From: a virus
Lineage: Duplodnaviria > Caudoviricetes
Length of the DNA: 64,000 nucleotides
Direction: 5' to 3' (one strand)
Virus record (IMG/VR): IMGVR_UViG_3300002026_000124
Location: 1 to 64,000 of that record
Below the pieces are notes generated by a model. That model was not told the DNA's origin. It did no database searches and saw only the letters and a list, made by a program, of their open reading frames with translations. The translations under genes and the position numbers were made by a program. Shown here in pieces: positions 24,431 to 64,000 of the stretch (position 1 is the stretch's first letter; every line of letters starts with the position of its first letter).

Positions 24431-24505
24431 ATGAAAAATTTAGTAAACATACAACCCCAGCCGCAACAACATCCAAAAGATGGTGAATGGGAAAAGTTTG
24501 CTTAA
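24431..24505 (+). CDS. Attenuator leader peptide 1, MKNLVNIQPQPQQHPKDGEWEKFA
   Basis: Hand translation; QPQPQQHP run matches the downstream Pro/Gln/His tRNAs. Confidence 0.85.
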   Translation: MKNLVNIQPQPQQHPKDGEWEKFA

Positions 24506-24532
24506 ATTTTCAAGAGAAGTTTTAGGTTAATT

Positions 24533-24564
24533 AAACCCCATTCGTGACGAGTGGGGTTTTTTTT
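24533..24564 (+). terminator. Attenuator terminator 1
   Basis: aaaccccattcg/cgagtggggttt stem plus T-run; 5' arm also complementary to leader 24485-24491. Confidence 0.85.
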
Positions 24565-24572
24565 GTTTTTAT

Positions 24573-24648
24573 CGGGATATAGTACAGTTGGTAGTATGCG
24601 TGCTTTGGGAGCATGAGGTCGTCAGTTCGAGTCTGGCTATCCCGACCA
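24573..24648 (+). tRNA. tRNA-Pro(TGG)
   Basis: Cloverleaf, loop TTTGGGA, C1-G72, encoded CCA. Confidence 0.95.
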
Positions 24649-24649
24649 A

Positions 24650-24743
24650 CAGGAAGTGAGCGAGAGGTTGAAGCTACTGGTCTTGGAAACCAGTCACGGC
24701 ACAAAGGCGTTGTCGTGCGTGGGTTCGAACCCCACCTTCCTGA
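24650..24743 (+). tRNA. tRNA-Pro(TGG) with 25-nt variable arm
   Basis: Acceptor caggaag/cttcctg, A73, stem ctggt/accag, loop CTTGGAA. Confidence 0.75.
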
Positions 24744-24813
24744 CATGTGGACTGGTTAGAATTTACATACAAGGTCGTCCGTAATTGGAAATGATGCGTA
24801 GGAAATTCAACAT

Positions 24814-24888
24814 GGTGGGTATAGCTTAGTTGGTTAAAGCGTCTGATTGTGGTTCAGAAGACCGTGGGTTCGAACCCCACTATCCACC
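24814..24888 (+). tRNA. tRNA-His(GTG)
   Basis: G-1:C73, loop TTGTGGT. Confidence 0.95.
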
Positions 24889-24896
24889 CTTTTTTT

Positions 24897-24972
24897 CGAG
24901 TAGTTGGGGAGTTGGTCACCCCGCCACATTTGGGATGTGGAGAACTCGCAGGTTCGAATCCTGCCTACTCGA
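24897..24972 (+). tRNA. tRNA-Pro(TGG)
   Basis: Acceptor cgagtag/ctactcg, loop TTTGGGA. Confidence 0.9.
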
Positions 24973-24974
24973 CT

Positions 24975-25049
24975 GTGTTAGGCGTAGATGTTGGCATCTT
25001 CACTTGGCTGTGAACCAAGGCTTCGGGGGTTCGATTCCCCTCTAACACC
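24975..25049 (+). tRNA. tRNA-His(GTG), no encoded G-1
   Basis: Stem cttgg/ccaag, loop CTGTGAA, C73. Confidence 0.75.
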
Positions 25050-25141
25050 TAAAAGCGTGATAAAAGAGTTTATCACGTTTATATGTGATTGAATATAAAA
25101 TTTACTAATCAGCTTATATTATATTCAATCACATATAATAC

Positions 25142-25214
25142 TGTCTCGTGGTGTAATTGGCAACATGTTTGGCTCTGAACCAAAAGAGTAGGGGTTCGAA
25201 ACCCTTCGAGACAA
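25142..25214 (+). tRNA. tRNA-Gln(CTG)
   Basis: Acceptor tgtctcg/cgagaca, loop CTCTGAA. Confidence 0.9.
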
Positions 25215-25219
25215 CATAT

Positions 25220-25300
25220 TATCCTTTGGCAGAATGGTCATTGCATCGCCCTTTGAAGGCGACACCGAGAGGTTTGCAGGTTCGAGTCCTGCAGGGATAA
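25220..25300 (+). tRNA. tRNA-Gln(TTG) with long variable arm
   Basis: Stem tcgcc/ggcga, loop CTTTGAA, extra arm caccgagaggttt. Confidence 0.8.
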
Positions 25301-25417
25301 CAAAAAGTTTTTGGAAATCTTGTATTTATTATTATCTTTGCATAAATATTGCTGGTATAATAACACGTTGTTATAGAATAGTACACGATGCATACTATCG
25401 CCAACATTTTTTAATAT

Positions 25418-25490
25418 TGTCCTGTGGTGTAATTGGCAACACGTCTGGTTTTGGTCCAGAAGAGTTCAGGTTCGAGACCTGACGGGACAA
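25418..25490 (+). tRNA. tRNA-Gln(TTG)
   Basis: Stem tctgg/ccaga, loop TTTTGGT; internal promoter TTTG-N19-TATCTTTG at 25310-25340 upstream. Confidence 0.9.
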
Positions 25491-25503
25491 CAAATTTATT
25501 ATT

Positions 25504-27428: not shown

Positions 27429-27542
27429 ATGAAAAATTTACTCAACATATTATCAGTAGTCCTAGTGGATGCGCTCTTATGGGCAGCGGATGAGGATATG
27501 GTATATCGTGTCGGGTCGAAAGATACTGGAGTAGGTTATTAA
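27429..27542 (+). CDS. Attenuator leader peptide 2, MKNLLNILSVVLVDALLWAADEDMVYRVGSKDTGVGY
   Basis: Hand translation; 17 of residues 8-25 are L/V/D/A/W/E/M, matching the downstream tRNAs. Confidence 0.85.
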   Translation: MKNLLNILSVVLVDALLWAADEDMVYRVGSKDTGVGY

Positions 27543-27562
27543 TAACTGAAACAATAAAAACG

Positions 27563-27592
27563 AAACCCGACCCGAAAGAGTCGGGTTTTTTT
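27563..27592 (+). terminator. Attenuator terminator 2
   Basis: aaacccgac/gtcgggttt stem, GAAA loop, T-run; leader 27511-27518 is complementary to 27568-27575. Confidence 0.85.
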
Positions 27593-27618
27593 ATTGTTCT
27601 TTGACATGTTGGAAATTT

Positions 27619-27689
27619 GGTCTATTAGGGTATGGGTATCCTTGGTGGTTGTCGCCCACCAGAATCGAGTTCGAGTCTCGAATAGACCG
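27619..27689 (+). tRNA. tRNA-Asp(GTC)
   Basis: Stem ggtgg/ccacc, loop TTGTCGC, G73. Confidence 0.85.
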
Positions 27690-27838
27690 CTAAACATTTG
27701 ATTGTCGGGTTATTACTCAGAGGGTTTTAACTTACGAAGATAGACGTGTTAGTATAATAAGTACACTTGCCTTAAATAAGTAGGAAGTTGTAACATGAAA
27801 AGGTTATCACACGTAACAAGAACGTCAAATGTTTTTAA

Positions 27839-27910
27839 CGGGGTCGTAGTTTAATGGTTAGAATACCGCACTGTCTATGCGGGGAAGGGGTTCGAATCCC
27901 ACGGCTTCGG
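27839..27910 (+). tRNA. tRNA-Asp(GTC), weak T-stem
   Basis: Stem ccgca/tgcgg, loop CTGTCTA, G73; only 3 bp in the T-stem. Confidence 0.7.
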
Positions 27911-27924
27911 CAAAATTTAAATTT

Positions 27925-28044
27925 ATGAAAAAGAATAAGTCGTCCGAAAATACCGGACAGTTAAAATCAAAAGTTTGCTTTAAAGTAATTTCTAAAGAGG
28001 AATTAAAGAAAAACAGAAGTAATGCATATGATTACTTAATTTAA
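27925..28044 (+). CDS. Small basic ORF (39 aa)
   Basis: Hand translation MKKNKSSENTGQ...YDYLI. Confidence 0.35.
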   Translation: MKKNKSSENTGQLKSKVCFKVISKEELKKNRSNAYDYLI

Positions 28045-28167
28045 TCTACCGATAATCTACCGTTATAACAGTAAAAAGTGCAATATGTTGCACAATCTAC
28101 CGATAATCTACCGATAATCTACCGATAATTACCGTTATAACAGTAAAAAGTGCAATATGGTGCACAA
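28043..28167. repeat. Compound tandem repeat (11-mer aatctaccgat plus duplicated palindrome-containing unit)
   Basis: 11-mer repeated 1x then 3x; taccgttataacagtaaaaagtgcaatatgNtgcacaa present twice. Confidence 0.85.
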
Positions 28168-28171
28168 AAAC

Positions 28172-28255
28172 GCAGCATTATACAAGCGGTCAAAGTAGCA
28201 AGTCCTTCAAACTTGCATCTTCGGATTTCGAGGGGTTCGAATCCCCCATGCTGTA
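28172..28255 (+). tRNA. Class II-type tRNA, anticodon TTC (Glu) by geometry, C33
   Basis: Acceptor gcagcat/atgctgt, stem caagt/acttg, loop CCTTCAA, variable hairpin atc-ttcg-gat. Confidence 0.65.
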
Positions 28256-28306
28256 CCTTGACTTTTCTGTACCATAGGACTATTTATAATAAAATATTAT
28301 ACTCCT

Positions 28307-28951
28307 ATGGCACGAAAAGAAAAAAAATATCACTTTATTTATAAAACAATAAACATCATAAATAATAAGTTTTATATTGGTATGCATTCAACAGACAATT
28401 TGAATGATGGATATGTTGGTAGCGGAACAAGACTTTGGTATTCAATAAATAAATATGGTAGGGAAAATCATAGATTGGAAATACTTGAATTTCATGAAAC
28501 ACGAATTATATTAAAAGAACGTGAAAAGAATTTAGTAAATGAGGATTTATTGAAAAATCCTATGTGCATGAACATAAAGATTGGTGGTGAAGGTGGATTA
28601 AATGGTCTTTCACAAGAATCAATTAAAAAAATACGTAAGGGTGCATCTGATTTCATGAAAATGAAGTGGAATGAACCAGAATTTAGAAATATGTGTTCTC
28701 AACGTTCTATAATTAAAATGAAAGAAAATCATAGACTTGGTAAAATGAGATATGATACGTTTATTGGTAAATCTCATAGTGAAGAAACAAGAGAACTTAT
28801 GAAAGTAGTTCATAAGGGAATGGGTATTGGTTCTACAAATTCTCAATTCGGTACTTGTTGGATAACTAAGTGTGGCGTAAATAAAAAAATTAATAATAAT
28901 GATTTGTCCTTATATATTAGTGATGGTTGGTGTAAGGGTAGAGTCATATAA
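28307..28951 (+). mobile_element. Free-standing GIY-YIG homing endonuclease (Seg-like) in the tRNA array
   Basis: FIYKTIN...KFYIGMHST...Y.GSG; NUMOD3-like GKSHSEETR. Confidence 0.85.
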
Positions 28952-28952
28952 T

Positions 28953-29024
28953 GGTCCGTTCGTCTAACGGTTAGGACGGCAGGTTTTCATCCTGTTAATA
29001 GGGTTTCGATTACCCTACGGACTA
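28953..29024 (+). tRNA. tRNA-Glu(TTC)
   Basis: Stem gcagg/cctgt, loop TTTTCAT. Confidence 0.9.
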
Positions 29025-29031
29025 CTAAAAT

Positions 29032-29104
29032 TGCGTGTTGTGGAAGTTGGCTCTCCGGACAGAATCATAATCTGTAGACACTGGTTCAAATCCAGTACAC
29101 GCAA
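29032..29104 (+). tRNA. tRNA-CAT (Met or Ile2)
   Basis: Stem acaga/tctgt, loop ATCATAA. Confidence 0.8.
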
Positions 29105-29111
29105 CAATATT

Positions 29112-29186
29112 GCTCTCTTAACTCAGTTGGTTCAGAGTGTCACGCTTACAACGTGAAGGTCGGGGGTTCGACTCCCTCAGAGAGCA
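29112..29186 (+). tRNA. tRNA-Val(TAC)
   Basis: Stem tcacg/cgtga, loop CTTACAA. Confidence 0.92.
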
Positions 29187-29303
29187 CAAATGCCGTAAGT
29201 CTGGATAAAATTCCTTAAAGGGAAACTGGAGTAGCGAATAACTTAAAGCGAAGTGGTTTCGTGATAGACGGTTGTGATGAAAAGTTAGTCACTCATTAGT
29301 CGC

Positions 29304-29379
29304 AGGGTAGAATGGTGTAAGAATGGGAGCACGTTTGCGATAAGCAAAAAGACGAAAGGTTCGAATCCGAAATACCCCT
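29304..29379 (+). pseudogene. Degenerate tRNA-like sequence
   Basis: GGTTCGAATCC present but T-stem is 2 bp; anticodon loop lacks U33. Confidence 0.45.
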
Positions 29380-29383
29380 TAAT

Positions 29384-29458
29384 AGTCCCTTAGTTTAGTT
29401 GGTAAAAACGTCTGGCTTACATCCAGAAGATGCACTGGTTCGAATCCAGTAGGGACTA
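29384..29458 (+). tRNA. tRNA-Val(TAC)
   Basis: Stem tctgg/ccaga, loop CTTACAT. Confidence 0.9.
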
Positions 29459-29468
29459 CTTTTGACAT

Positions 29469-29534
29469 ACGGTTTAGGACCGTTATAGCTTCGGCTATAA
29501 AGGGGGTGGGATGTTCGCTACTGACCACCCCTTT
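29469..29534 (+). ncRNA. Compact three-hairpin element
   Basis: acggt/accgt, tatagc-UUCG-gctata and a 10-bp aagggggtgg/ccaccccttt stem. Confidence 0.45.
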
Positions 29535-29653
29535 ACAAAAAACGTTTAATTTTGCATAGTTATTCTTATTAATTTAAACTATCTGTGCAAATTTTATCGG
29601 TTGTAGAGGCGATAAGCATAGTTTATCGGTTGTAGAGACGATAAAATTTAAAT

Positions 29654-29735
29654 ACGGGTATAGTCCAACGGTAGGACGCTCTCTGTCCAAGGGGAGAAAT
29701 AGGCTGCAGTCAGGGTTCAATTCCCCTTACCCGTG
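29654..29735 (+). tRNA. tRNA-Asp(GTC)-like with aberrant anticodon arm and long variable region
   Basis: Acceptor acgggta/tacccgt, G73, D-stem gtcc/ggac, CTGTC present, loop irregular. Confidence 0.5.
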
Positions 29736-29795
29736 CAAAAAATAATTATTATCCTTGTATTATATATTAACTGCATATACTAAGATAATAAATAT

Positions 29796-29877
29796 CTCGC
29801 AGTGTCGTAATTGGTAGCCGGGACAGTCTAAGAAGCTGTTGCCTTCGGGTGTGTGGGTTCGAGTCCCACTTGCGAGA
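29796..29877 (+). tRNA. tRNA-Leu(AAG)
   Basis: Stem acagt/gctgt, loop CTAAGAA, long variable arm, A73. Confidence 0.8.
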
Positions 29878-29884
29878 CGAATAT

Positions 29885-29939
29885 GGGGATGTGATGAAAT
29901 TGGCGATACATGCCAGACTTAGAATCTGGCGCTAATAAA
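29885..29939 (+). pseudogene. 5' two-thirds of tRNA-Leu(TAG), truncated in the variable arm
   Basis: GGGGATG..D-arm..ccaga CTTAGAA tctgg, then no T-arm. Confidence 0.7.
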
Positions 29940-29952
29940 CTGGCTTCACTTT

Positions 29953-30029
29953 GGGGCAGTAGTGACAATTGGCTAACACGACAGATTTGCACTCTGTAAA
30001 TGGGGTATCATACATCCCCTGCTCCACCA
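29953..30029 (+). tRNA. tRNA-Ala(TGC) with non-canonical T-loop
   Basis: G3:U70, loop TTTGCAC, encoded CCA; T-loop ATCATAC. Confidence 0.75.
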
Positions 30030-30098
30030 CAACATTGGTTTCGAAAACCAACGTCTCCACTTTTCCAGAAAACCAAGTATTTATAATAAAGAAATATT

Positions 30099-30917
30099 GT
30101 GAATACTTGGAAAACTAATAGAAAAACAATTTTAATTAATTGTGAAAATTGTGGAAATGAATTCAAAAAAACATTATCTGAATATAATCGTTCAGAAAAA
30201 TTAAATAAAAAACATTTTTGTTCATTAAAATGTAATAATGAATCTAAAAAGATTAAACTAAAATTCTGTTTACAATGTAATGAAGAGTTTATTCCCGATA
30301 AAAATAAAACTAAGTTCTGTTCACATTCTTGTAACGCAAAATATAATAATAAAAATAGAAAGGGTATTAAATACAATATAAGTGAAAATGGTTTAATTGG
30401 ATTAAGGGAATCGTATAAAAATAATTTCGGATATGATATTATAAAATTTAGAAATAACTATTATCAATCACAGAATTATTGTAAAGAATGTAATGAACCT
30501 ATTCCATATGAAAAAAAGAATCATGTTTTTTGTAATCGGGATTGTAAAAGAACATATGATAGAAAGAATTTAACTGAATATCAAAAATACTATAAAGATT
30601 GTCAATTTAAATTTGGTTTATCAGACTATCCAAATGAATTTGATTTCGAATTGATTAAAACACATGGTTGGTATCAACCAAAAAATCATGGCAATAACTT
30701 AGGTGGAATTAGTAGAGACCATATGATTTCAGTAAAATATGGATATGAAAATAATATTAGTTCTGAGATAATTAGTCATCCTGCCAATTGTCAATTGATG
30801 ATTCATAATGAGAATATTAGTAAATATAAGAATTGTTCAATAACATTAGAAGAACTAATGATTAAAATTGATAATTGGAATGAAAAATATTCACAAATAA
30901 CAATGGGTTTAACATAG
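30099..30917 (+). mobile_element. Zn-finger/HNH-type homing endonuclease
   Basis: Repeated CxxC...FCS..C modules and C-terminal RDHMISV...HPANC...H..N..K. Confidence 0.75.
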
Positions 30918-30981
30918 TGGCGAGTGTTAACCGTAAGTCCTGCGTGGCTGGTAACGGTGGTTCGATTCCATCAGCCTGTTG
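30901..30981 (+). ncRNA. Non-canonical tRNA-like RNA
   Basis: Intact T-arm ggtgg-TTCGATT-ccatc, 7-bp D-like stem, 8-bp acceptor-like stem, no standard anticodon loop. Confidence 0.4.
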
Positions 30982-30986
30982 TTTAT

Positions 30987-31059
30987 GCCCTGTTGACGTA
31001 ATTGGCAACCGTATTGGTCTTAAAAGCCAAGTTTCTCAGTTCGAATCTGAGGCGGGGTA
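30987..31059 (+). tRNA. tRNA-Leu(TAA) with short (4-nt) variable loop
   Basis: Stem ttggt/gccaa, loop CTTAAAA, A73. Confidence 0.8.
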
Positions 31060-31095
31060 CTATTTAAAAATTTTATAGTATTTATGATAAAAACT

Positions 31096-31416
31096 ATGGA
31101 TACAAAACAAAAATTATTCGAGATGATGGGTAAACTAAATCATGATTTTAAACAATCAAAAATTGTTGAAGGGTTTGAAAATAGTAATAATCCAATTAAT
31201 TCCGAACAATTAACCCAAAAGGATGTGGCATCTAAAATTAGAAATCGAGGATATCAATATCACACAGATACTACACTTAAAACAATTGGTGTAAATGCTA
31301 TTATAGATGAAATGAAACCCAGAGATTTACAATATTTTTTGGATTTAGGGTTTGTACGTGAACCATTAGGTGATTTAGGTTCAGAATATGATTCATTAAA
31401 TTATCATTACATATAA
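31096..31416 (+). CDS. Hypothetical protein with LFE-type N-terminal motif
   Basis: MDTKQKLFEMMGKLNHDF; start at 31096, after GTATTTAT at 31078. Confidence 0.6.
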   Translation: MDTKQKLFEMMGKLNHDFKQSKIVEGFENSNNPINSEQLTQKDVASKIRNRGYQYHTDTTLKTIGVNAIIDEMKPRDLQYFLDLGFVREPLGDLGSEYDSLNYHYI

Positions 31417-31420
31417 ATCT

Positions 31421-31936
31421 ATGGACTACCATTTGAGTTTATTTATCATGTCGATTCTTGTATTTGTTTCCTATGTCGGAGCAGTATGGATTAAATTCGG
31501 TGTACAGCCATCAATAAGTGCAAGTTATGATTGTTGGAAAGGCTTATGGCAATCACTTTTCGTATTATTCTGTTGGGGATTTGCATTTCCTGCAATGGTT
31601 ATTGGTATAGAAGTAACGCCATTAATGTTTTTTGCTTGTGCTGGAATTATGTTTGTAGGTGCCGCATATGAAATAAAAATTAAATGGGTATATGAATATC
31701 ATATGGTATTTGCAATATCCGGAATTATATTTAGCCAGTTAGCAATTTACTTTGGTTATGATTTACTATGGGTTAACATAGTATCGGTTGTATTATCAGT
31801 ATTAATATTATTAGGTAAATTGTATCTTGGTTTAAAGAATCACTTCTGGTGGATAGAGTTAGTTGCCTTTGCTGCAATAGTTTATGCAATGGGAACTAAG
31901 ATTATTCCTTTCTTATATCTAACAACACTTAATTAA
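31421..31936 (+). CDS. Polytopic membrane protein
   Basis: About five hydrophobic segments. Confidence 0.65.
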   Translation: MDYHLSLFIMSILVFVSYVGAVWIKFGVQPSISASYDCWKGLWQSLFVLFCWGFAFPAMVIGIEVTPLMFFACAGIMFVGAAYEIKIKWVYEYHMVFAISGIIFSQLAIYFGYDLLWVNIVSVVLSVLILLGKLYLGLKNHFWWIELVAFAAIVYAMGTKIIPFLYLTTLN

Positions 31937-31939
31937 AAT

Positions 31940-32022
31940 TCGTTCGTGGTAGAGTGGTCGATTACATTGGTCTCCAAAACCAATAGAGAAATCTCACGTG
32001 GGTTCGAATCCTACCGAACGAG
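31940..32022 (+). tRNA. tRNA-Trp(CCA) with long variable arm
   Basis: Stem ttggt/accaa, loop CTCCAAA, G73, extra arm gag-aaat-ctc. Confidence 0.85.
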
Positions 32023-32231
32023 CATAAATAATGGTAAAAATTGCGGGTACGTACACAAGTCAAAGTTCTTTCCAACGGAACACCGACTACTACTGAGGGT
32101 AGAGATATTCCCAAGAGCAATATCAGTTAGTGTATGACCATTATTTTATAATTTTTTATAAAATTTCCAAAAATCTTTAAATTTTTATTATTTTTTATTT
32201 TTCAGATAGTATTTATCTGAAAAGTATAACT

Positions 32232-41348: not shown

Positions 41349-41630
41349 GGGGGCGACTTGGATTTGATTAGATGTCAGATTGGTAAAGTAAGCAAGTCTT
41401 AGTTGAATCAGACTAAGTAAAAAAGAGTGTTGAACTCGCAATGGTAGCGTAGGGAATAAACAAACCAACAAAAACTTCTGGTGAAGTAAGTTATGAATAA
41501 GTGAGTAACGAATCCCGAAGAGAAACTAAAATGTAAACTATTCTATTTTGCTTGTTTAGAAAAACGAGATAAACTTGTAGAAAACCTATTAATCACATTT
41601 AAGACGAGGGTTCGAATCCCTCCGCTTCCA
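41349..41630 (+). ncRNA. ssrA: tmRNA (short, ~282 nt)
   Basis: 5' GGGGGCGACTTGGATTTGA; 3' GAC-GAGGG-TTCGAAT-CCCTC-CGCTTCC-A; G3:U70 alanine identity. Confidence 0.85.
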
Positions 41631-41656
41631 CTTAATACATTAAAAATCAATTAGTT

Positions 41657-41932
41657 ATGGGAAAGAAATCATTGAAAAGTAAATTAATTGGATTAGTACT
41701 TAAAAATCTATGTAAAGAAAATTTTGAATTAATTACACAAGAATTAGTACAAGATGATTTAAATAAATATTTAGCATTTAAAACAAGAGTTTCTGATTTT
41801 AGATTATGTGAAGACCAAAATTTTAAAAGTGCTGGAATATCATTTACTGATGATAATGATGAATTTCGTGTGATTAATGTTACTATTGGACAAACAATTA
41901 CATCGAAAAATAAACTATTAAAAATCAATTAG
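41657..41932 (+). CDS. Hypothetical protein
   Basis: 91-aa ORF. Confidence 0.5.
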   Translation: MGKKSLKSKLIGLVLKNLCKENFELITQELVQDDLNKYLAFKTRVSDFRLCEDQNFKSAGISFTDDNDEFRVINVTIGQTITSKNKLLKIN

Positions 41933-41934
41933 TT

Positions 41935-42363
41935 ATGGGACTCGATTATGAAAAAATGAGCAAAATGTTGGATGATTATATTGCATCACCAGAAGGTATT
42001 GCATATTTCGAAAATAAACGAATTATCCAAGAAATTCAAGAAGGTCGCTACAGGCGTTTTGAGGCGTATTTACAGACACATGATTTTGATAAGTTAATGT
42101 ATCGGCTAATACTTGAACATGGGGAAGAATGGCGTGAAAAATGCTACCACAGTGGTTGTGAACCATATCCTAATAACAAGCTGCAATTCATCATCGATTA
42201 TGTACAACGTGAATTTGAAGTAATTAGGGTAGCACAACTTGAGAATATGTTTAATACGCAAATAAGGTTCTTCAAGGGATATTATTTCAGAATCATGCAT
42301 GGTCAGGGCAGTTGTTTTGATTTATATAATGGTGGGGATTTTAAACATTTATTAAGTGCATGA
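41935..42363 (+). CDS. Hypothetical protein
   Basis: 142-aa ORF. Confidence 0.55.
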   Translation: MGLDYEKMSKMLDDYIASPEGIAYFENKRIIQEIQEGRYRRFEAYLQTHDFDKLMYRLILEHGEEWREKCYHSGCEPYPNNKLQFIIDYVQREFEVIRVAQLENMFNTQIRFFKGYYFRIMHGQGSCFDLYNGGDFKHLLSA

Positions 42364-42671
42364 AAAAATTCAATAAATTAGTAAGGGATAGGATTCCGGA
42401 AATCATTGTAAAAAAGGGTTCGAAATGTGATTATCATATTGCTGAAAATAATGAAGAATTTATAACTAAACTTCACGAAAAACTCAGGGAAGAAGTCCAG
42501 GAATTCGAAGATAACCCAAGTATTGAAGAAATGGTTGACATAATGGAAGTTCTGGAAAGTCTATCAATATATTACGGTTTTGAAGCAGATGAAATCGATA
42601 AAGAGAAGAAAGAAAAGAATGAAAAACGTGGGGGATTCAAAAAAAGAATAATATTGGATTCTACGGATTAA
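42360..42671 (+). CDS. MazG-like / PRA-PH-like nucleotide pyrophosphohydrolase
   Basis: KLVRDRIPEII...KL.EE..EF...EE..D..EV pattern. Confidence 0.75.
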   Translation: MKKFNKLVRDRIPEIIVKKGSKCDYHIAENNEEFITKLHEKLREEVQEFEDNPSIEEMVDIMEVLESLSIYYGFEADEIDKEKKEKNEKRGGFKKRIILDSTD

Positions 42672-42732
42672 GAGATAAAATGTTAACCATTAAATGGGTG
42701 GCGATTCATTAGTAGTTAATATATTAACCAAT

Positions 42733-42821
42733 GGCGGGGTGGTGGAATTGGTAGACACGCTGGACTTAAAATCCAGTGGGCAGTAATGCCCGTGTGGGTT
42801 CGAGTCCCATCCCCGCTACCA
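42733..42821 (+). tRNA. tRNA-Leu(TAA)
   Basis: Canonical class II, loop CTTAAAA, encoded CCA. Confidence 0.95.
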
Positions 42822-42836
42822 AAAATTAGAAAAATT

Positions 42837-43109
42837 ATGGCGAAATTAAAAGTGCCTGTGGATGTACTGTATGAAAAATGCAGGAAAGTCATTAATCATG
42901 AAATCCGAATTGAATCTCGTGAAGAAGCAAGAGAAATTATGCTACTTACTACAGAGAAGCATCGTAATGATTTCGTCAAATATCACCAACAGGACATGGG
43001 TAATATTTGTTGCATGGTTCTTGATGCAGCAAAGCAAGACTTGGTGAAAGAAGGAAAATTAGTTCTGAAACCCGAAGATAGTTTCGGACACCCATTAACA
43101 TTTGAATAA
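42837..43109 (+). CDS. Hypothetical protein
   Basis: Start moved to ATG 42837, downstream of the tRNA. Confidence 0.5.
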   Translation: MAKLKVPVDVLYEKCRKVINHEIRIESREEAREIMLLTTEKHRNDFVKYHQQDMGNICCMVLDAAKQDLVKEGKLVLKPEDSFGHPLTFE

Positions 43110-43149
43110 TATGGCAATAATTTATTAAAAAAACTGTAAAGAAAAGACT

Positions 43150-43332
43150 ATGATAGATATTAAAGCGGGTGAAGGTTTATGCGAATATATTCGAAGGGCA
43201 AATGGTATGAAAAAAGAAATATCGCAATTAAGTGACATACCAAAAATTGTAAATAGTGATAAAATTACAATTACTGGTGGTGCTGAATTTATTGGGAAAT
43301 TTTTGAATGCGTTACCGGAAGAATATAAATAA
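43150..43332 (+). CDS. Small hypothetical protein
   Basis: 60-aa ORF. Confidence 0.4.
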   Translation: MIDIKAGEGLCEYIRRANGMKKEISQLSDIPKIVNSDKITITGGAEFIGKFLNALPEEYK

Positions 43333-43339
43333 TTTTAAA

Positions 43340-43422
43340 GTCCTTGTGATGAAATTGGTAGCACGTGATAGTTTCAAAAACTATTGCCTTCGGGCGTGAG
43401 GGTTCGAGTCCCTCCAAGGACA
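43340..43422 (+). tRNA. tRNA-Leu(CAA)
   Basis: Stem atagt/actat, loop TTCAAAA, long variable arm. Confidence 0.88.
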
Positions 43423-43446
43423 CTAATTTAATTAAAATTTAAAACG

Positions 43447-43496
43447 ATGAAAGAAAAATTTAAAGTCTTGTAGGTTGCTCTAATGCGACTACAAGA
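43447..43496 (+). promoter_or_regulatory. uORF MKEKFKVL* with hairpin covering the next initiation region
   Basis: ATG 43447 to TAG 43473; 12-bp stem 43466-43496 ends 2 nt before ATG 43499. Confidence 0.5.
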
Positions 43497-43498
43497 AA

Positions 43499-43819
43499 AT
43501 GAGAGTAAAAACTATTTCAAAGACCACTACTAATCGTGGTGTATTCAATCGTGCGTATAAAGAACTTCTTGAACGCAAAGGTAGAATCCATTGTTCACGT
43601 TGCAAATACCATAAAGGTGAAAACTATGAAGGTAAATGGTATGGAGAATATATTTATGACGATATGAATACCTGTCGTGGTAAATCAGGAACTCATACAA
43701 AGTTACCAAATTGGAAACTTGTTTCAAAACAACCAAAACAATGGATGAAAAAACCCATCAAATTTGTTGATAAACAATATGGTGGGTACAGGTACATTTA
43801 CGTTGACATCAAATGGTGA
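43499..43819 (+). CDS. Small very basic protein with CxxC
   Basis: K/R-rich 106 aa. Confidence 0.55.
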   Translation: MRVKTISKTTTNRGVFNRAYKELLERKGRIHCSRCKYHKGENYEGKWYGEYIYDDMNTCRGKSGTHTKLPNWKLVSKQPKQWMKKPIKFVDKQYGGYRYIYVDIKW

Positions 43820-43830
43820 TGTCAACACAT

Positions 43831-43902
43831 TGCGAGTTAGCTTAGTGGTAAAGCATCACCTTCATAAAGTGGAGACCGAGGGTTCGAGTCCCTCACTCGC
43901 AA
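43831..43902 (+). tRNA. tRNA-CAT (Met or Ile2)
   Basis: Acceptor tgcgagt/actcgca, loop TTCATAA, one stem mismatch. Confidence 0.8.
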
Positions 43903-43945
43903 CAAAAAACCCATCGAATTCGATGGGTTTAGATTTCCAATATGT

Positions 43946-47752: not shown

Positions 47753-48850
47753 TTGCACATGAACTCATTTTTAGAAAAAGTCGATTGGAATGTATTAAAT
47801 ACATATATCGACAATAGCTTAATTATCTCAAACAAGCATCCAGAATATGATATTTGGATTCTTAATTATTCGCCAAAGGTTCAGTCTAAGAAATTTTGGG
47901 ATGAATATACTTTGTCATGCCGTGGACTCGTTATTGATGCCGAAGGCAATATCTTAGCACGACCATTTCAAAAATTCAAGAACTATGAAGAATATGACCC
48001 ATCAGAATTCGATTGGTCTCAGGACTTCGATGTGTTTGAAAAAATGGATGGCTCATTAATTATCTTATTTTACTACGAACCACGTATGGAATGGATAATT
48101 GCGTCAAGGGGTTCTTTCGCATCTGAACAAGCGATTGAAGGAAGAAAAATGATTGAGTCTAATACATATAATCATTTAGACGTTAAAGAAACATATTTGT
48201 TCGAAATTCTGTATCCAGAAAATCGCATTGTTGTCGATTACGGTAATAGAAGAGAATTAGTATTATTAGGTAGAGTTAACACTTTAGATGGTTTTGAATT
48301 ATATTATGACGATTTAGTTTCAATGCATTCAAAATATTTTACCGTTGTAAAGAAATTTAATATTAAGTCTTTCGTTGAATTAAGAGAATTGATAACTAAG
48401 GGTGAAGAAAACAAAGAAGGATTTGTAATTAGGTTTTACAGTGGTTTAAGAATTAAGATGAAATTTGCTGAATATGTTAGACTACACGGAATCATAACAA
48501 ATGTCTCAAATCTAGTTGTTTGGGAACATTTGAGAGACAAATATGAATTTGATGAATTGCTTGATAGAGTACCTGACGAGTTTTATCAGTGGCTTAATAA
48601 AACAGTAGCAACATTAAATAATGAATTCTACAATATTGAGAGATTGGCGTTGAAGGAATTTATTAGGATTTATTATAATGACGACACTGTTATTCGTAAA
48701 GATTTTGCAATGGAAGCACAAAAAAGTGCTTATCGTTCAATTTTATTTAAAATTTACGATAAAAATAGTTACGATGAAATCATATGGAATATGATAAGAC
48801 CTGAATATAGTAAACCATTTAAGGATGGTTATGTAGATGAAACTTTATGA
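47753..48850 (+). CDS. RNA ligase, T4 Rnl1 family
   Basis: CRGL...ARPF.KF.N, EKMDGS (motif I), FEI..PENRIVV, EGFV and K.K motifs. Confidence 0.88.
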   Translation: MHMNSFLEKVDWNVLNTYIDNSLIISNKHPEYDIWILNYSPKVQSKKFWDEYTLSCRGLVIDAEGNILARPFQKFKNYEEYDPSEFDWSQDFDVFEKMDGSLIILFYYEPRMEWIIASRGSFASEQAIEGRKMIESNTYNHLDVKETYLFEILYPENRIVVDYGNRRELVLLGRVNTLDGFELYYDDLVSMHSKYFTVVKKFNIKSFVELRELITKGEENKEGFVIRFYSGLRIKMKFAEYVRLHGIITNVSNLVVWEHLRDKYEFDELLDRVPDEFYQWLNKTVATLNNEFYNIERLALKEFIRIYYNDDTVIRKDFAMEAQKSAYRSILFKIYDKNSYDEIIWNMIRPEYSKPFKDGYVDETL

Positions 48851-51703: not shown

Positions 51704-51746
51704 TGTAACATTTACTTGTTTTATTCGTATTTATGTCTTTACTTTG
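51704..51746 (+). promoter_or_regulatory. Promoter region of tRNA operon 3
   Basis: TGTAACA-N15-CGTAT variant (51704-30) and near-consensus CTTG-N20-TTACTTTG (51715-46). Confidence 0.55.
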
Positions 51747-51782: not shown

Positions 51783-51875
51783 ATGAAAATTTTTGGCACA
51801 TATTATTACGGTAAAAAATCTTATAAGAAACATCTTACGAGAATCGGGAATGTTATGTCCAAAAAGCAAAAATAA
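51783..51875 (+). CDS. Attenuator leader peptide 3, MKIFGTYYYGKKSYKKHLTRIGNVMSKKQK
   Basis: Hand translation; YYYGKKSYKK run matches the downstream Lys/Tyr tRNAs. Confidence 0.85.
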   Translation: MKIFGTYYYGKKSYKKHLTRIGNVMSKKQK

Positions 51876-51902
51876 GCAATGATTTTTGCATAAAGCACAG
51901 AG

Positions 51903-51930
51903 ACCCGATTCGAAAGATTCGGGTTTTTTT
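51903..51930 (+). terminator. Attenuator terminator 3
   Basis: acccgattc-GAAA-gattcgggt plus T-run; leader 51841-48 is complementary to 51904-11. Confidence 0.85.
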
Positions 51931-51937
51931 GTTTTTA

Positions 51938-52011
51938 GACCTCTTAGCTCAATTGGTAGATGCACCACCCTTTTAAGGTGGGGGTTCTGGGTTCAAGTCC
52001 CAGAGGGGTCA
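51938..52011 (+). tRNA. tRNA-Lys(TTT)
   Basis: Stem ccacc/ggtgg, loop CTTTTAA. Confidence 0.92.
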
Positions 52012-52016
52012 CAAAT

Positions 52017-52106
52017 GAGAGTACGGCAACGAGTGGTGTTGCGCAGAGGCGCATAATCTCTGTCCCAGTGGGGTGAACATAGGTGGTTCGAATCCATCTG
52101 CTCTCA
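52017..52106 (+). tRNA. Non-canonical tRNA-CAT (G33, 6-bp anticodon stem, long variable arm)
   Basis: Acceptor gagagta/tgctctc, loop CGCATAA. Confidence 0.55.
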
Positions 52107-52111
52107 CAAAT

Positions 52112-52192
52112 GCCAGTATTGAACAGGTGGTGAGTTTAAGACTCTGTAAAAGTCTCGCTTCGGCTGTGTAGGTTCGATTCCTGCTGCTGGCA
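52112..52192 (+). tRNA. tRNA-Tyr(GTA)
   Basis: Stem agact/agtct, loop CTGTAAA, variable arm. Confidence 0.88.
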
Positions 52193-52246
52193 CTTACGGT
52201 AGAGTTTAGGCAATTTCTGTACCCAACGTAACTGAAATATCCATAC

Positions 52247-52317
52247 GCACCCGTAGCAAAGGGGATATGCCTCTGGCTTTTAACCAGATGACACAGGTTC
52301 GATTCCTGTCGGGTGCA
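52247..52317 (+). tRNA. tRNA-Lys(TTT)
   Basis: Stem tctgg/ccaga, loop CTTTTAA. Confidence 0.88.
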
Positions 52318-52372
52318 CTTTTAGGGTTTTTTACTACTTTTTAAGTCCAATGTCCCAATAAAAAGTAGACAA

Positions 52373-52457
52373 GTATTCGTAGCAAAGTGGTTATGCTCCT
52401 GCCTTTTAAGCAGAGTGTCTAAACAACACAACGTGGGTTCGATTCCCACCGAATACA
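52373..52457 (+). tRNA. tRNA-Lys(TTT) with long variable arm
   Basis: Loop CTTTTAA, extra arm gtgt...acac. Confidence 0.8.
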
Positions 52458-52462
52458 CAAAT

Positions 52463-52545
52463 GGACAGGTGGGTGAGTGGTTAAAACCGCCAGACTGTAA
52501 ATCTGGTAGCTTCGGCTTTCGGGGGTTCGAATCCCTCCCTGTCCA
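52463..52545 (+). tRNA. tRNA-Tyr(GTA)
   Basis: Canonical; ccaga CTGTAAA tctgg. Confidence 0.95.
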
Positions 52546-52552
52546 CAAATAT

Positions 52553-52795
52553 ATGATTATGGAAACACTAAAAGAAATTGTGAATGGAACTATGGCTAAA
52601 CTAAGCCATATATGCAATGGTAAAGCGTATTATAGAATTGATAATGAGAATCATTCTTATCAACTTGAAATTAATTGCAATGATGCTGAATGGAAAGATG
52701 TGTATATCTATCCTGAAATCAAAGCAATTACATTAATGAGGTGGATACGCAAGGGTATTGAAAAACAGGATGACACATTCATCGTGTTGAAATAG
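52553..52795 (+). CDS. Hypothetical protein
   Basis: Start moved downstream of tRNA-Tyr. Confidence 0.55.
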   Translation: MIMETLKEIVNGTMAKLSHICNGKAYYRIDNENHSYQLEINCNDAEWKDVYIYPEIKAITLMRWIRKGIEKQDDTFIVLK

Positions 52796-52801
52796 GCTCA
52801 A

Positions 52802-52873
52802 GCACTCGTGGCAGAATGGCGATGCTACTCCCTCTTAAGGAGACCAATAGGGGTTCGATTCCCTTCGGGTGCA
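52802..52873 (+). tRNA. tRNA-Lys(CTT)
   Basis: Loop CTCTTAA, acceptor gcactcg/cgggtgc. Confidence 0.85.
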
Positions 52874-52878
52874 CAATT

Positions 52879-62116: not shown

Positions 62117-62147
62117 TTTGCAGATATTGAAACTTTATTTACCTTTG
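62117..62147 (+). promoter_or_regulatory. Bacteroidota sigma-A-type promoter of tRNA operon 4
   Basis: TTTG (62117-20), N19, TACCTTTG (62140-47). Confidence 0.8.
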
Positions 62148-62189
62148 CGGAGTATTTAGTTTTATACAAGACATAAAATTTATAAAATA

Positions 62190-62318
62190 ATGAAATCACA
62201 AGTATCCAATATTAACATTTCGTCAACGATTAATAGTCGTAATGGAGAAAGTATATTCTGTTCAAGTTTTACAGGCAGAAATATAGCGGATACGGGTTCA
62301 GGATTTTTATCGTGTTGA
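62190..62318 (+). CDS. Attenuator leader peptide 4, MKSQVSNINISSTINSRNGESIFCSSFTGRNIADTGSGFLSC
   Basis: Hand translation; S10 I5 T3 C2 match the downstream tRNAs; remainder is rich in N/G/F/R. Confidence 0.82.
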   Translation: MKSQVSNINISSTINSRNGESIFCSSFTGRNIADTGSGFLSC

Positions 62319-62342
62319 AATAAACACAAAAAAATTAAAAAG

Positions 62343-62372
62343 AACCCGAATTCGCAAGATTCGGGTTTTTTT
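62343..62372 (+). terminator. Attenuator terminator 4
   Basis: aacccgaat/attcgggtt, GCAA loop, T-run; leader 62293-99 is complementary to 62342-48. Confidence 0.85.
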
Positions 62373-62388
62373 ATGTTCTTTTTATACT

Positions 62389-62459
62389 GTCGGGATAATT
62401 TAGTGGTAGAATGCTTGTTTGGTATTCAAGCAACACCAGTTCGATTCTGGTTCTCGGCT
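62389..62459 (+). tRNA. tRNA-Thr(GGT)
   Basis: Loop TTGGTAT, acceptor gtcggga/tctcggc. Confidence 0.85.
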
Positions 62460-62463
62460 CAAA

Positions 62464-62513
62464 ATATAACTCTTACGGGTTATAAATACAAAATATAACC
62501 TCTACAGGTTATA
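62464..62513 (+). repeat. Tandem duplicated small hairpin (tataac-N8-gttata x2)
   Basis: Two diverged copies between tRNA-Thr and tRNA-Cys. Confidence 0.6.
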
Positions 62514-62547
62514 CTCCGTAAGATGTTCATTGACATGCTGGTTTTAT

Positions 62548-62622
62548 GCACGGATGGTCGAGTGGTCAAAGGCAACGCTCTGCAAAAGCGTACAATCGTG
62601 GGTTCGAATCCCACTCCGTGCT
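62548..62622 (+). tRNA. tRNA-Cys(GCA)
   Basis: Stem acgct/agcgt, loop CTGCAAA, U73. Confidence 0.93.
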
Positions 62623-62669
62623 CTGGGTCGTTTTCGTACTTTCTCAGTATTTATCTGAAAGTACAAATT

Positions 62670-63332
62670 ATGGCAAGAAAAGAAAAACAATATCATTTCA
62701 TTTATAAGACAACTAATAAGTTGAATGGTAAATATTATTACGGAATGCATTCCACAAATAATTTAAATGATGGATATTATGGTTCAGGAAAAAGATTGAG
62801 ACGTTCTTTGAATAAATATGGTAAAGAAAATCATGTTGTTGAATATCTTGAATTTCTACCCGATAGAAAATCGCTAATTGAACGTGAAAAAGAAATTGTT
62901 AATTTAAATGAAATTGCGAAAGAAGATTGTATGAATCTAATGGTTGGTGGAAAAGGTGGTTTTATTTCAGAACAGGCATTGAAGGGAAGATATGCTGCAG
63001 ATAAAATTTTGATTGAAAAATATGGTGAGAATTGGCGAAGAGTTATTTTTAGAAAATATTTTGATGGTTTAAGTGATGAAGAAAAAGAATTAATTTATCA
63101 GAAAATGAAAAAAACTAATGAAATAAATGGATATGACTATAAAGGTTTTTTAGGAAAAAAACATTTACCTGAAACCATAGAAAAAATGAAAAAAAGTAAG
63201 AATGTTGGGATAAATAATTCACAATTTGATACTTGCTGGATTTATTCTGATGAATATAGTAAACCACAAAAAATTAAAAAATTTCAATTAAATGAATTTA
63301 TTAATCGTGGTTGGCGAAAGGGAAGAAAATAA
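62670..63332 (+). mobile_element. Free-standing GIY-YIG homing endonuclease, paralog of 28307..28951
   Basis: MARKEKQYHFIYKTTN...YYYGMHST; start moved to ATG 62670. Confidence 0.85.
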
Positions 63333-63335
63333 TAC

Positions 63336-63416
63336 TGTGACGTGGATGAATGGTTTAGTCACCACGCTGATACCGTGGGTCGCAAGACAACGTGGGTTCG
63401 AGTCCCACCGTCACAA
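63336..63416 (+). tRNA. tRNA-Ile(GAT) with long variable arm
   Basis: Stem ccacg/cgtgg, loop CTGATAC, extra arm gtc-gcaa-gac. Confidence 0.82.
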
Positions 63417-63448
63417 CAAAGCAATCAAAATTTTAATCATTCACTAAT

Positions 63449-63533
63449 GGAAGAGTGTCCGAGTGGTTTATGGTGGCAGTCTTGAAAACTGCTGGATGTA
63501 AAAGTCCCGTGGGTTCGAATCCTACCTCTTCCG
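63449..63533 (+). tRNA. tRNA-Ser(TGA)
   Basis: Canonical class II, loop CTTGAAA, G73. Confidence 0.95.
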
Positions 63534-63572
63534 CACTATTTAATTGGAAATTGGGTAGAATATTTAAAAAAA

Positions 63573-63657
63573 GGAGGGGGGACAGGATGGTAATGTGCCT
63601 GTTTGCTAAACAGAGGCTGGGATAATACCCAAGAGTGGTCGGTACACTCTCTCTCCG
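63573..63657 (+). tRNA. tRNA-Ser(GCT) with non-canonical T-loop
   Basis: Loop TTGCTAA, G73, T-loop GTCGGTA. Confidence 0.75.
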
Positions 63658-63662
63658 CAAAA

Positions 63663-64000
63663 AAGGTTAGTAATCCAGAAGCCTAACCAGCCGAAGGGTG
63701 AAGTTTCCTTAATGAAATTGATACAAACAAGCACCTGTGGTGGGATTGCAATGTGTTGATAAATTAGTTAAAAACTCATTTCGACTTTAATATTGGAACA
63801 TGAAGATTTATGGTGCACCTTATCTTCTGGAAGGTTCGAAACCTTTGGAGTCGGCTAGAATCACATGCAGTGGATATCATCATGTGGTTTGTGCACCAAA
63901 AAAGAAGTCATGACTCTTTGAGGTGTAAAAGTTCTGGGATGCATAAGAGGCTGACCTAATGTTCTGTTGGAATTTGAGTGTTAGTAGATTTATTTACACG
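63663..64000 (+). ncRNA. Candidate large structured RNA, truncated by the window end
   Basis: No credible ORF; multiple nested stems. Confidence 0.4.

Follow-up and report, generated by a model that had tools for sequence, protein, structure and literature searches.

Here, we analysed a window of 64,000 nucleotides (nt), bases 1-64000 of the 72,175-base virus record IMGVR_UViG_3300002026_000124, in which portal and terminase genes are present. We found that a block of transfer RNA (tRNA) genes at the end of the window is preceded by a short open reading frame (ORF), leader 4, whose codons are largely those of the amino acids served by the block, and by strands able to form an antiterminator and a terminator. 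Leader 4 very probably controls the block by ribosome-mediated transcription attenuation, as feedback on tRNA supply, and three sister units (units 1-3) lie further upstream (Table 1). Another 8,175 bases of the record remain past the window, and their coordinates continue those of the window (L001:4817-4890 is contig 64817-64890).

Leader 4 begins 42 nt past a TAnnTTTG box, and a box of this kind was present within 22-70 nt upstream of the leader ORF in 53 of the 57 related leaders. The peptide contains ten Ser, five Asn, five Ile, four Gly, three Thr, three Phe, two Arg and two Cys residues and one each of Met, Lys, Gln, Val, Glu, Ala, Asp and Leu, with Ser codons of both the TCN and the AGT type. 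The initial annotation, made from the letters of the window, had given the same counts, leaving out the eight single residues, and the same two types of Ser codon. It had also paired CGGGTTC (62293-99) with GAACCCG (62342-48), a pairing that proved to be part of a longer duplex between 62286-62299 and 62342-62355 (-21.9 kcal/mol; p 0.005 against codon shuffles). The antiterminator fold (-26.9 kcal/mol, z -7.1) and the terminator fold (-17.4 kcal/mol, z -5.2), each compared with 200 shuffles, share 62342-62355 and are thus mutually exclusive. A GTATTTA motif was found upstream of 56 of the 57 leaders; before long ORFs it occurred in 19 of 57 cases in the sense and in 7 in the antisense orientation. 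Composite promoters, in which the host TAnnTTTG box is combined with GTATTTA, stand before the leaders and many genes (e.g. 51704-51740 and 62150-62159), and often have TGTAAC upstream as well (34 of the 57 leaders); they contain a candidate phage promoter motif.

The codons of leader 4 match the tRNA genes behind it. Twenty-six of the 29 codons in positions 3-31 specify Ser, Thr, Ile, Asn, Gly, Phe, Cys or Arg, which account for 45% of the phage background (binomial p 7e-7); standard wobble lets anticodons of the block read 25 of the 29, and a codon for 12 of the block's 15 anticodon types occurs there. The block itself (62389-70375, 8 kb) serves exactly these eight amino acids. From the window, the initial annotation had named Asn, Gly, Phe and Arg as the only amino acids lacking a tRNA there, which ARAGORN and Rfam bore out (tRNA-Ala is supported by an Rfam match at 29953 and by relaxed ARAGORN), and had predicted that the operon continues past 64000 with these four. 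ARAGORN found all four on the same strand, together with Thr and Ile, in two groups of tRNAs (64108-66045 and 68185-70375), and past the window neither ARAGORN nor Rfam detected a tRNA for an amino acid outside the eight. Within the window, the tRNAs that had been matched to the leader are firm by both programs for Ser(TGA), Ile, Thr and Cys, while Ser(GCT) was recovered by relaxed ARAGORN only. The latter gene may be degenerate, and relatives have a Ser(GCT) in the same slot.

Leaders 1-3 also matched their own blocks. Cognate codons made up 8 of 14 in leader 1 (Pro, Gln, His; p 3e-6), 20 of 28 in leader 2 (Asp, Glu, Val, Leu, Ala, Trp, Met; p 7e-5) and 8 of 16 in leader 3 (Lys, Tyr; p 3e-4). 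In total, 19 of the 20 amino acids were most frequent in the leader of their own tRNA block, the exception being Gly (permutation p <5e-6), and by this composition test the four leaders partition all 20 amino acids, as had been anticipated. There was no leader ahead of the transfer-messenger RNA gene (Rfam, 69.5 bits) and the tRNAs Leu(TAA), Leu(CAA) and a CAT tRNA (41349-43903, the three tRNAs at 42733-43903), indicating that some tRNA genes lie outside the attenuators even though every amino acid is covered. The pooled compositions of leaders 1-3 are partly circular, as these families were sorted by short peptide patterns; the tests within single genomes (the window contig, LR745206.1 and LR756500.1) are not, and in them some CAT anticodons were taken as Ile2 by position.

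We also observed that U-ending codons of four-codon boxes are scarce in the leaders (5 seen versus 16 expected, p 5e-5), with p 0.016, 0.006 and 0.005 in three other genomes and 0.19 in a fourth, all expectations being drawn from the codon usage of the window contig. Split codon boxes showed no codon bias in the leaders. Given that a U-ending codon in a four-codon box usually has two isoacceptors to read it, the avoidance of such codons suggests that the leaders may be tuned to single tRNAs. Alternatively, the avoidance could be read in the light of classical leaders, whose codon bias tracks selective isoacceptor charging (PMC1183508). The idea that leaders maximise the count of different synonymous codons was rejected as inconsistent (p 0.04, 0.81, 0.02 and 0.09 in four genomes).

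The arrangement is conserved in relatives, which are not phylogenetically independent. They are uncultured jumbo phages whose genomes measure 321-365 kb and, in two cases, carry direct terminal repeats; their terminases share 75-80% identity with that of the window phage. The same four-way split was found in G001, G002, G006, G007 and G008, and G004 carries leaders 1-3 and a match to the leader-4 pattern. Behind 29 relatives of leader 4, 293 of the 316 tRNA calls are of the eight cognate types, and 9 more are CAT tRNAs, mostly in a slot that elsewhere holds Ile(TAT). The leader-4 peptides of relatives are 31-71% identical to that of the window, with in-frame indels and an invariant Arg codon in the core, and the start codon, the frame and the position of the stop (19-41 nt ahead of the terminator) are kept while the leader sequences diverge. 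Moreover, a leader-4 strand forms a more stable pairing with its own terminator than with that of a relative (interaction -2.7 kcal/mol, p <5e-5, uncorrected for kinship). In G003, leader 3 is lost, the terminator there is mismatched and the Lys tRNAs are gone, tRNA-Tyr alone being kept.

Two distant huge phages, LR745206.1 and LR756500.1 (terminases about 27-39% identical over short stretches), divide the code differently and provided the strongest test of the match. LR745206.1 (634,780 bp) has seven leader units, namely His/Phe/Trp/Lys, Ser/Arg, Glu/Tyr, Ile/Gly/Ala, Asn/Leu/Thr/Val/Met/Ile/Arg, Pro/Asp and Gln, and LR756500.1 has four, namely His/Glu/Val/Trp/Leu, Lys/Met/Phe, Asn/Asp/Arg and Ala/Leu/Pro/Tyr/Gln/Gly/Thr. 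The true assignment of leaders to blocks ranked first among 5040 permutations in the former and first among 24 in the latter. Judged from these sequences, tRNA groups were reshuffled in distant phages and the leaders rewritten to match, which neither chance nor a protein antiterminator explains. Chance would require that short AT-rich ORFs, naturally rich in Ser, Asn, Ile and Phe, met with short complementary strands, which are common; the high background share of the eight amino acids and the marginal duplex p values of some single leaders fit this, but the p values for leader 4 and for the four-way split, the blind prediction of the tRNAs past the window and the independent splits in the two distant phages leave it a negligible likelihood.

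In the attenuation that we propose, host-type and probably also phage-type promoters would start the transcript, and a ribosome translating the 42-codon leader would trail RNA polymerase. With ample tRNAs for Ser, Thr, Ile, Asn, Gly, Phe, Cys and Arg, the ribosome would reach codons 32-42 and cover 62286-62299, so that the terminator folds and transcription ends ahead of the first tRNA. When any cognate tRNA is short, be it through cleavage by a host tRNase, lack of charging or excessive use by phage genes, the ribosome would lag in codons 3-31, the antiterminator would form and the block for those eight amino acids would be transcribed. Units 1-3 would act likewise for Pro/His/Gln, Asp/Glu/Val/Leu/Ala/Trp/Met and Lys/Tyr, so that all 20 amino acids would be monitored. 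We modelled this co-transcriptionally, with the transcript cut at the terminator loop and the RNA up to 12 nt past the start of the A-site codon removed, and the model gave the expected pattern for thrL, hisL and pheM of E. coli. For leader 4, the terminator arm was sequestered with the ribosome on codons 2-31 and freed from codon 32-33 onward, and in all 57 distinct leaders (5, 5, 18 and 29 in families 1-4) the modelled switch fell directly past the cognate-rich segment. Without a ribosome, the modelled read-through probability was 1.0 for leader 4 versus 0.0 for hisL and 0.05 for pheM, suggesting that general translation failure should also turn leader 4 on.

Several observations weigh against this proposal. 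In the equilibrium fold of the full leader-terminator transcript the terminator is favoured in most leaders, as it is in all three E. coli controls; equilibrium folding is therefore uninformative as a test of the switch, which in the model is kinetic. Theory holds that a pause hairpin is needed for sharp attenuation, and the candidate for an RNA polymerase pause hairpin, in codons 22-31, is 92% paired but gained no support from its z of -0.65 or from covariation, which it does not show. The sensing window of leader 4 has only two Arg codons and one Cys codon, and sensitivity to single tRNAs may be low. Finally, phage-type promoter-like motifs inside block 4 and a hairpin at 68523 may uncouple distal genes. 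The equilibrium result would also fit a terminator overridden without the ribosome, by a phage antiterminator protein or by tRNA pairing as in a T-box, with the ORF incidental, and jumbo phages often encode their own transcription factors. This explanation is nevertheless very improbable: leader 4 showed no Rfam T-box match, T-box bulge motif or Stem I specifier loop, the start codon, frame and stop-to-terminator spacing are kept despite sequence divergence, and leader composition tracks the tRNA set across different splits.

We then considered how far the attenuated transcript extends. The genes behind leader 4 comprise tRNAs, an endonuclease, a GNAT protein and unknown proteins. No strong terminator was found between 62372 and 71135, and no second leader peptide, including an Arg-rich one, was found within block 4; the separate leader ahead of the Asn, Gly, Phe and Arg tRNAs that had been named as a counter-indication was thus missing, and none was found ahead of the Arg block either. 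The whole 8-kb block may accordingly form one attenuated transcript, although the distal Arg and Gly genes may be partly uncoupled from the attenuator. In the stronger form of this idea, the attenuator gates the proximal tRNAs only, and distal Asn, Thr, Arg and Gly(GCC) are made from internal promoters, for which GTATTTAT motifs at 62646, 65017, 66518 and 70410, weak hairpins at 66632 and 67709, and the length of the block with protein genes interspersed among its tRNAs could be cited. A weak AT-rich hairpin (68523-68547, with a T run to 68552) also stands just before Arg(TCT) and is followed by TAnnTTTG at 68556-63, a pair common to one sub-lineage. However, this box ends at the first base of tRNA-Arg(TCT), and given that the Bacteroidota box spans -12 to -5 (PMC9723704), a transcript from it would begin within the acceptor stem of that tRNA. 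Many relatives are without the 68523 hairpin, Arg(TCT) directly following a gene or tRNA-Thr (22 nt in L057), and the invariant Arg codon in the leader core, with no Arg-rich second leader, also argues against it. We consider internal promoters unlikely to account for the distal genes.

A second question is which shortage the attenuators were selected to sense. The Lys/Tyr unit has a T4 Rnl1-type RNA ligase gene (47753-48850) a few kb upstream; this gene was found upstream of that unit in four of the five complete relatives (G001, G002, G006, G007) and is missing only in G003, which lost leader 3 and the Lys tRNAs (one event). A PolyA_pol/CCA-adding domain was present in all five. PrrC and retron-Eco7 are known to target Lys and Tyr tRNAs, and infection is rescued by tRNAs that the phage encodes (PMC11555353). 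The ligase, the CCA-adding domain and this known targeting favour, circumstantially, tRNA loss as the trigger. The same attenuator could instead have been selected to sense host amino-acid starvation through the level of tRNA charging, as in biosynthetic operons. Stalling would be the same for an uncharged and a missing tRNA, and the phage leaders are codon-biased like the classical ones whose bias tracks charging. On the other hand, the output is tRNA genes, not biosynthetic enzymes, and extra tRNA would give no amino acid; the repair ligase near the Lys/Tyr unit, gone where leader 3 was lost, and the defence targeting of Lys and Tyr tRNAs also speak for tRNA loss. Starvation as the selected signal, which shares its mechanism with the tRNA-loss reading and overlaps it, is a possibility of lesser weight, rather doubtful but not remote. 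Tentatively, and with belief short of an even balance, we suggest that Bacteroidota jumbo phages run a complete tRNA-supply monitor, in which 4 to 7 attenuators, with codons tuned to single isoacceptors, divide the code and act as an inducible counter-defence that senses damage.

Table 1. Attenuator units and tRNA genes of the window and of the 8,175 bases past it.
Feature	Position	Strand	Remarks
Unit 1	24431..25491	+	Leader 24431-24505 (Pro/Gln/His); antiterminator 24483-91; terminator from 24533; tRNAs Pro x3, His x2, Gln x3
Unit 2	27429..32023	+	Leader 27429-27542 (Leu/Val/Asp/Ala/Trp/Glu/Met); terminator from 27563; tRNAs Asp, Glu, Met, Val, Leu, Ala, Trp
Unit 3	51783..52874	+	Leader 51783-51875 (Lys/Tyr); terminator from 51901; tRNAs Lys x4, Tyr x2
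Bacteroidota sigma-A-type promoter	62117..62147	+	TTTG 62117-20; TAnnTTTG -7 box 62140-47
GTATTTA motif	62150..62159	+	Overlaps the region of the start site; candidate promoter element specific to the phage, putative function
Leader ORF 4	62190..62318	+	42 codons; sensing window codons 3-31, to about 62282
Antiterminator strand	62286..62299	+	Codons 33-37; 14 nt; pairs with terminator 5′ arm 62342-62355
Intrinsic terminator hairpin with T run	62338..62372	+	About 23 nt past the leader 4 stop
tRNA-Thr(GGT)	62389..62460	+	ARAGORN and Rfam
tRNA-Cys(GCA)	62548..62623	+	ARAGORN and Rfam
GIY-YIG-like homing endonuclease gene, inserted	62670..63332	+	Pfam PF01541, E 2e-4, just under cut-off
tRNA-Ile(GAT)	63336..63417	+	ARAGORN and Rfam
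tRNA-Ser(TGA)	63449..63534	+	ARAGORN and Rfam
tRNA-Ser(GCT)	63576..63658	+	Atypical T arm; relaxed ARAGORN only; no Rfam match at E 0.1
Spacer at window edge	63659..64000	+	Block extends past it
tRNA-Asn	64108, 64905, 65973	+	Past window; ARAGORN
tRNA-Phe	64339, 64502	+	Past window; ARAGORN
tRNA-Gly(TCC), tRNA-Gly(GCC)	64582, 70299	+	Past window; ARAGORN
tRNA-Thr(TGT)	64659, 68185	+	Past window; ARAGORN
tRNA-Ile(TAT)	64817	+	Past window; ARAGORN
tRNA-Arg (TCT, CCT, TCG, ACG)	68563, 68827, 69300, 69379	+	Past window; ARAGORN
tRNA with unassignable identity	70221	+	Past window; ARAGORN
Probable end terminator of block	71135-71159	+	

Further features were noted within the units. In unit 1, a second host-type promoter (25311-25340) stands before the last Gln(TTG) and could bypass attenuator 1. 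In unit 2, tRNA-Leu(AAG), with A34 (29796-29878), is unusual in bacteria and also occurs in G002, G003, G006 and G007. In unit 4, the anticodon of tRNA-Ile(TAT) (contig 64817-64890) is rare in bacteria, and its slot alternates in relatives with a CAT tRNA, probably a lysidine Ile2. Between Ser(GCT) and Asn, from 63660 to contig 64100, lie about 450 nt that are non-coding and GC-richer, with no Rfam match, and comparable unexplained stretches were seen at 29190-29380 and contig 64190-64330; these are possibly structured RNAs or decayed tRNAs. Homing-endonuclease-like genes between the tRNAs of units 2 and 4 were recognised by eye, with no Pfam match, at 28307-28951, 30099-30917 and L001:10433-11116.

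Among relatives, L008 carries leader 4 twice (about 13085 and 13963), with one copy truncated and the T run past the terminator weakened. In many relatives, block 4 is followed by a tRNA whose anticodon is CTA, an amber suppressor that ARAGORN calls Pyl (G001 148036, G002 34047, G005 77586, G006 237313, G007 159544, W02 110720), and TAG read-through or recoding is possible. In LR745206.1 (L109, L112), the Gln leader, which lacks its own promoter box, is nested in the Pro/Asp unit (406703-408119), whose leader also has Gln codons, and the Ile/Gly/Ala leader is likewise nested, after the Glu/Tyr unit (365029-369249).

The TAnnTTTG boxes suggest a host in the Bacteroidota, as does the ribonucleotide reductase, for which Bacteroides crAss-like phages make up most of the best named relatives. 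TAnnTTTG is the promoter consensus of this phylum, and Flavobacteria show signs of leader-peptide attenuation (PMC9723704), which indicates that host machinery supports such control. A terminase search found no close cultured phage, the best being Flavobacterium phage immuto (28%). A scan of GTDB with the leader-4 DNA pattern, which detects close kin only, gave two matches, none of them in a Bacteroidota chromosome. One (L128, JBAZIW010000001.1) is a 362,763-bp contig of the phage clade whose length and leader are identical to those of G006, binned in a Paceibacterota metagenome-assembled genome (MAG). The other (L129), in a Patescibacteria MAG, is a 15-kb contig that carries a relative of leader 4; both are probably mis-binned.

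Compared with known systems, the phage units have defining sequence-level features of multivalent leader-peptide attenuators and, with tRNA genes as their output, stand outside the families of amino-acid biosynthesis and synthetase operons. Like thrL (Thr/Ile), ilvL, trpL, hisL, leuL and pheL of E. coli, a phage unit has a promoter, a short ORF with control codons, an antiterminator over the 5′ arm of the terminator, and the terminator; amino-acid operon leaders (thrL, hisL and pheM were run) and phage leaders behave alike in one folding model. Unlike them, leader 4 is viral, controls tRNA genes instead of enzymes and combines eight amino acids without long codon runs, and the four units partition the whole code. 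Rfam returned a weak Thr_leader match at 62301-62375 (28.6 bits against a cut-off of 55) and no leader family at gathering score. The pheM attenuator of E. coli pheST, which encodes phenylalanyl-tRNA synthetase, feeds back on charged tRNA supply; the phage units would act on the same supply, whereas pheM is chromosomal, senses a single amino acid and has a protein as output. T-box riboswitches are likewise terminator/antiterminator switches that report tRNA status, but they bind uncharged tRNA directly through the specifier loop and T-box bulge, without translation, and no element of this kind was found here.

Phage tRNA arrays are known from other systems. Those of T5-like phages, studied against retron-Eco7 and PrrC, are able to replace depleted host tRNAs, as the blocks described here would be, but the control reported for them is a strong promoter, and the string 'attenuat' is absent from the text (PMC11555353). 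Similarly tRNA-rich are huge phages, which carry as many as 67 tRNAs, with predicted Bacteroidetes hosts for the largest, in a text from which 'attenuat' and 'leader' are absent (PMC7162821). Our literature searches, with most subscription journals outside their coverage, found no account of the attenuation of tRNA genes. Phage tRNA arrays have been hypothesised to serve counter-defence, within a debate of more than 50 years on whether phage tRNAs compensate for codon usage or replace tRNAs destroyed by the host (PMC10264068).

Taken together, these results suggest that each tRNA block is probably expressed only on a shortage of its tRNAs at the ribosome. Leader-peptide attenuation would thereby reach tRNA genes as well as viruses, with eight amino acids sensed by one leader and the whole code covered. 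Leader sequences can also predict unseen tRNA content in fragmented assemblies, as in the blind prediction made here. If a block stays off until ribosomes slow down on its own codons, its tRNA genes would serve on-demand shortage and not constant codon compensation, and each leader would be a ready reporter of which tRNAs fail during infection, making that debate testable. If the proposed tRNA-supply monitor is true, blocks of replacement tRNAs would be turned on by tRNA depletion itself, whether through host cutting defences or phage demand, and not by a defence protein.

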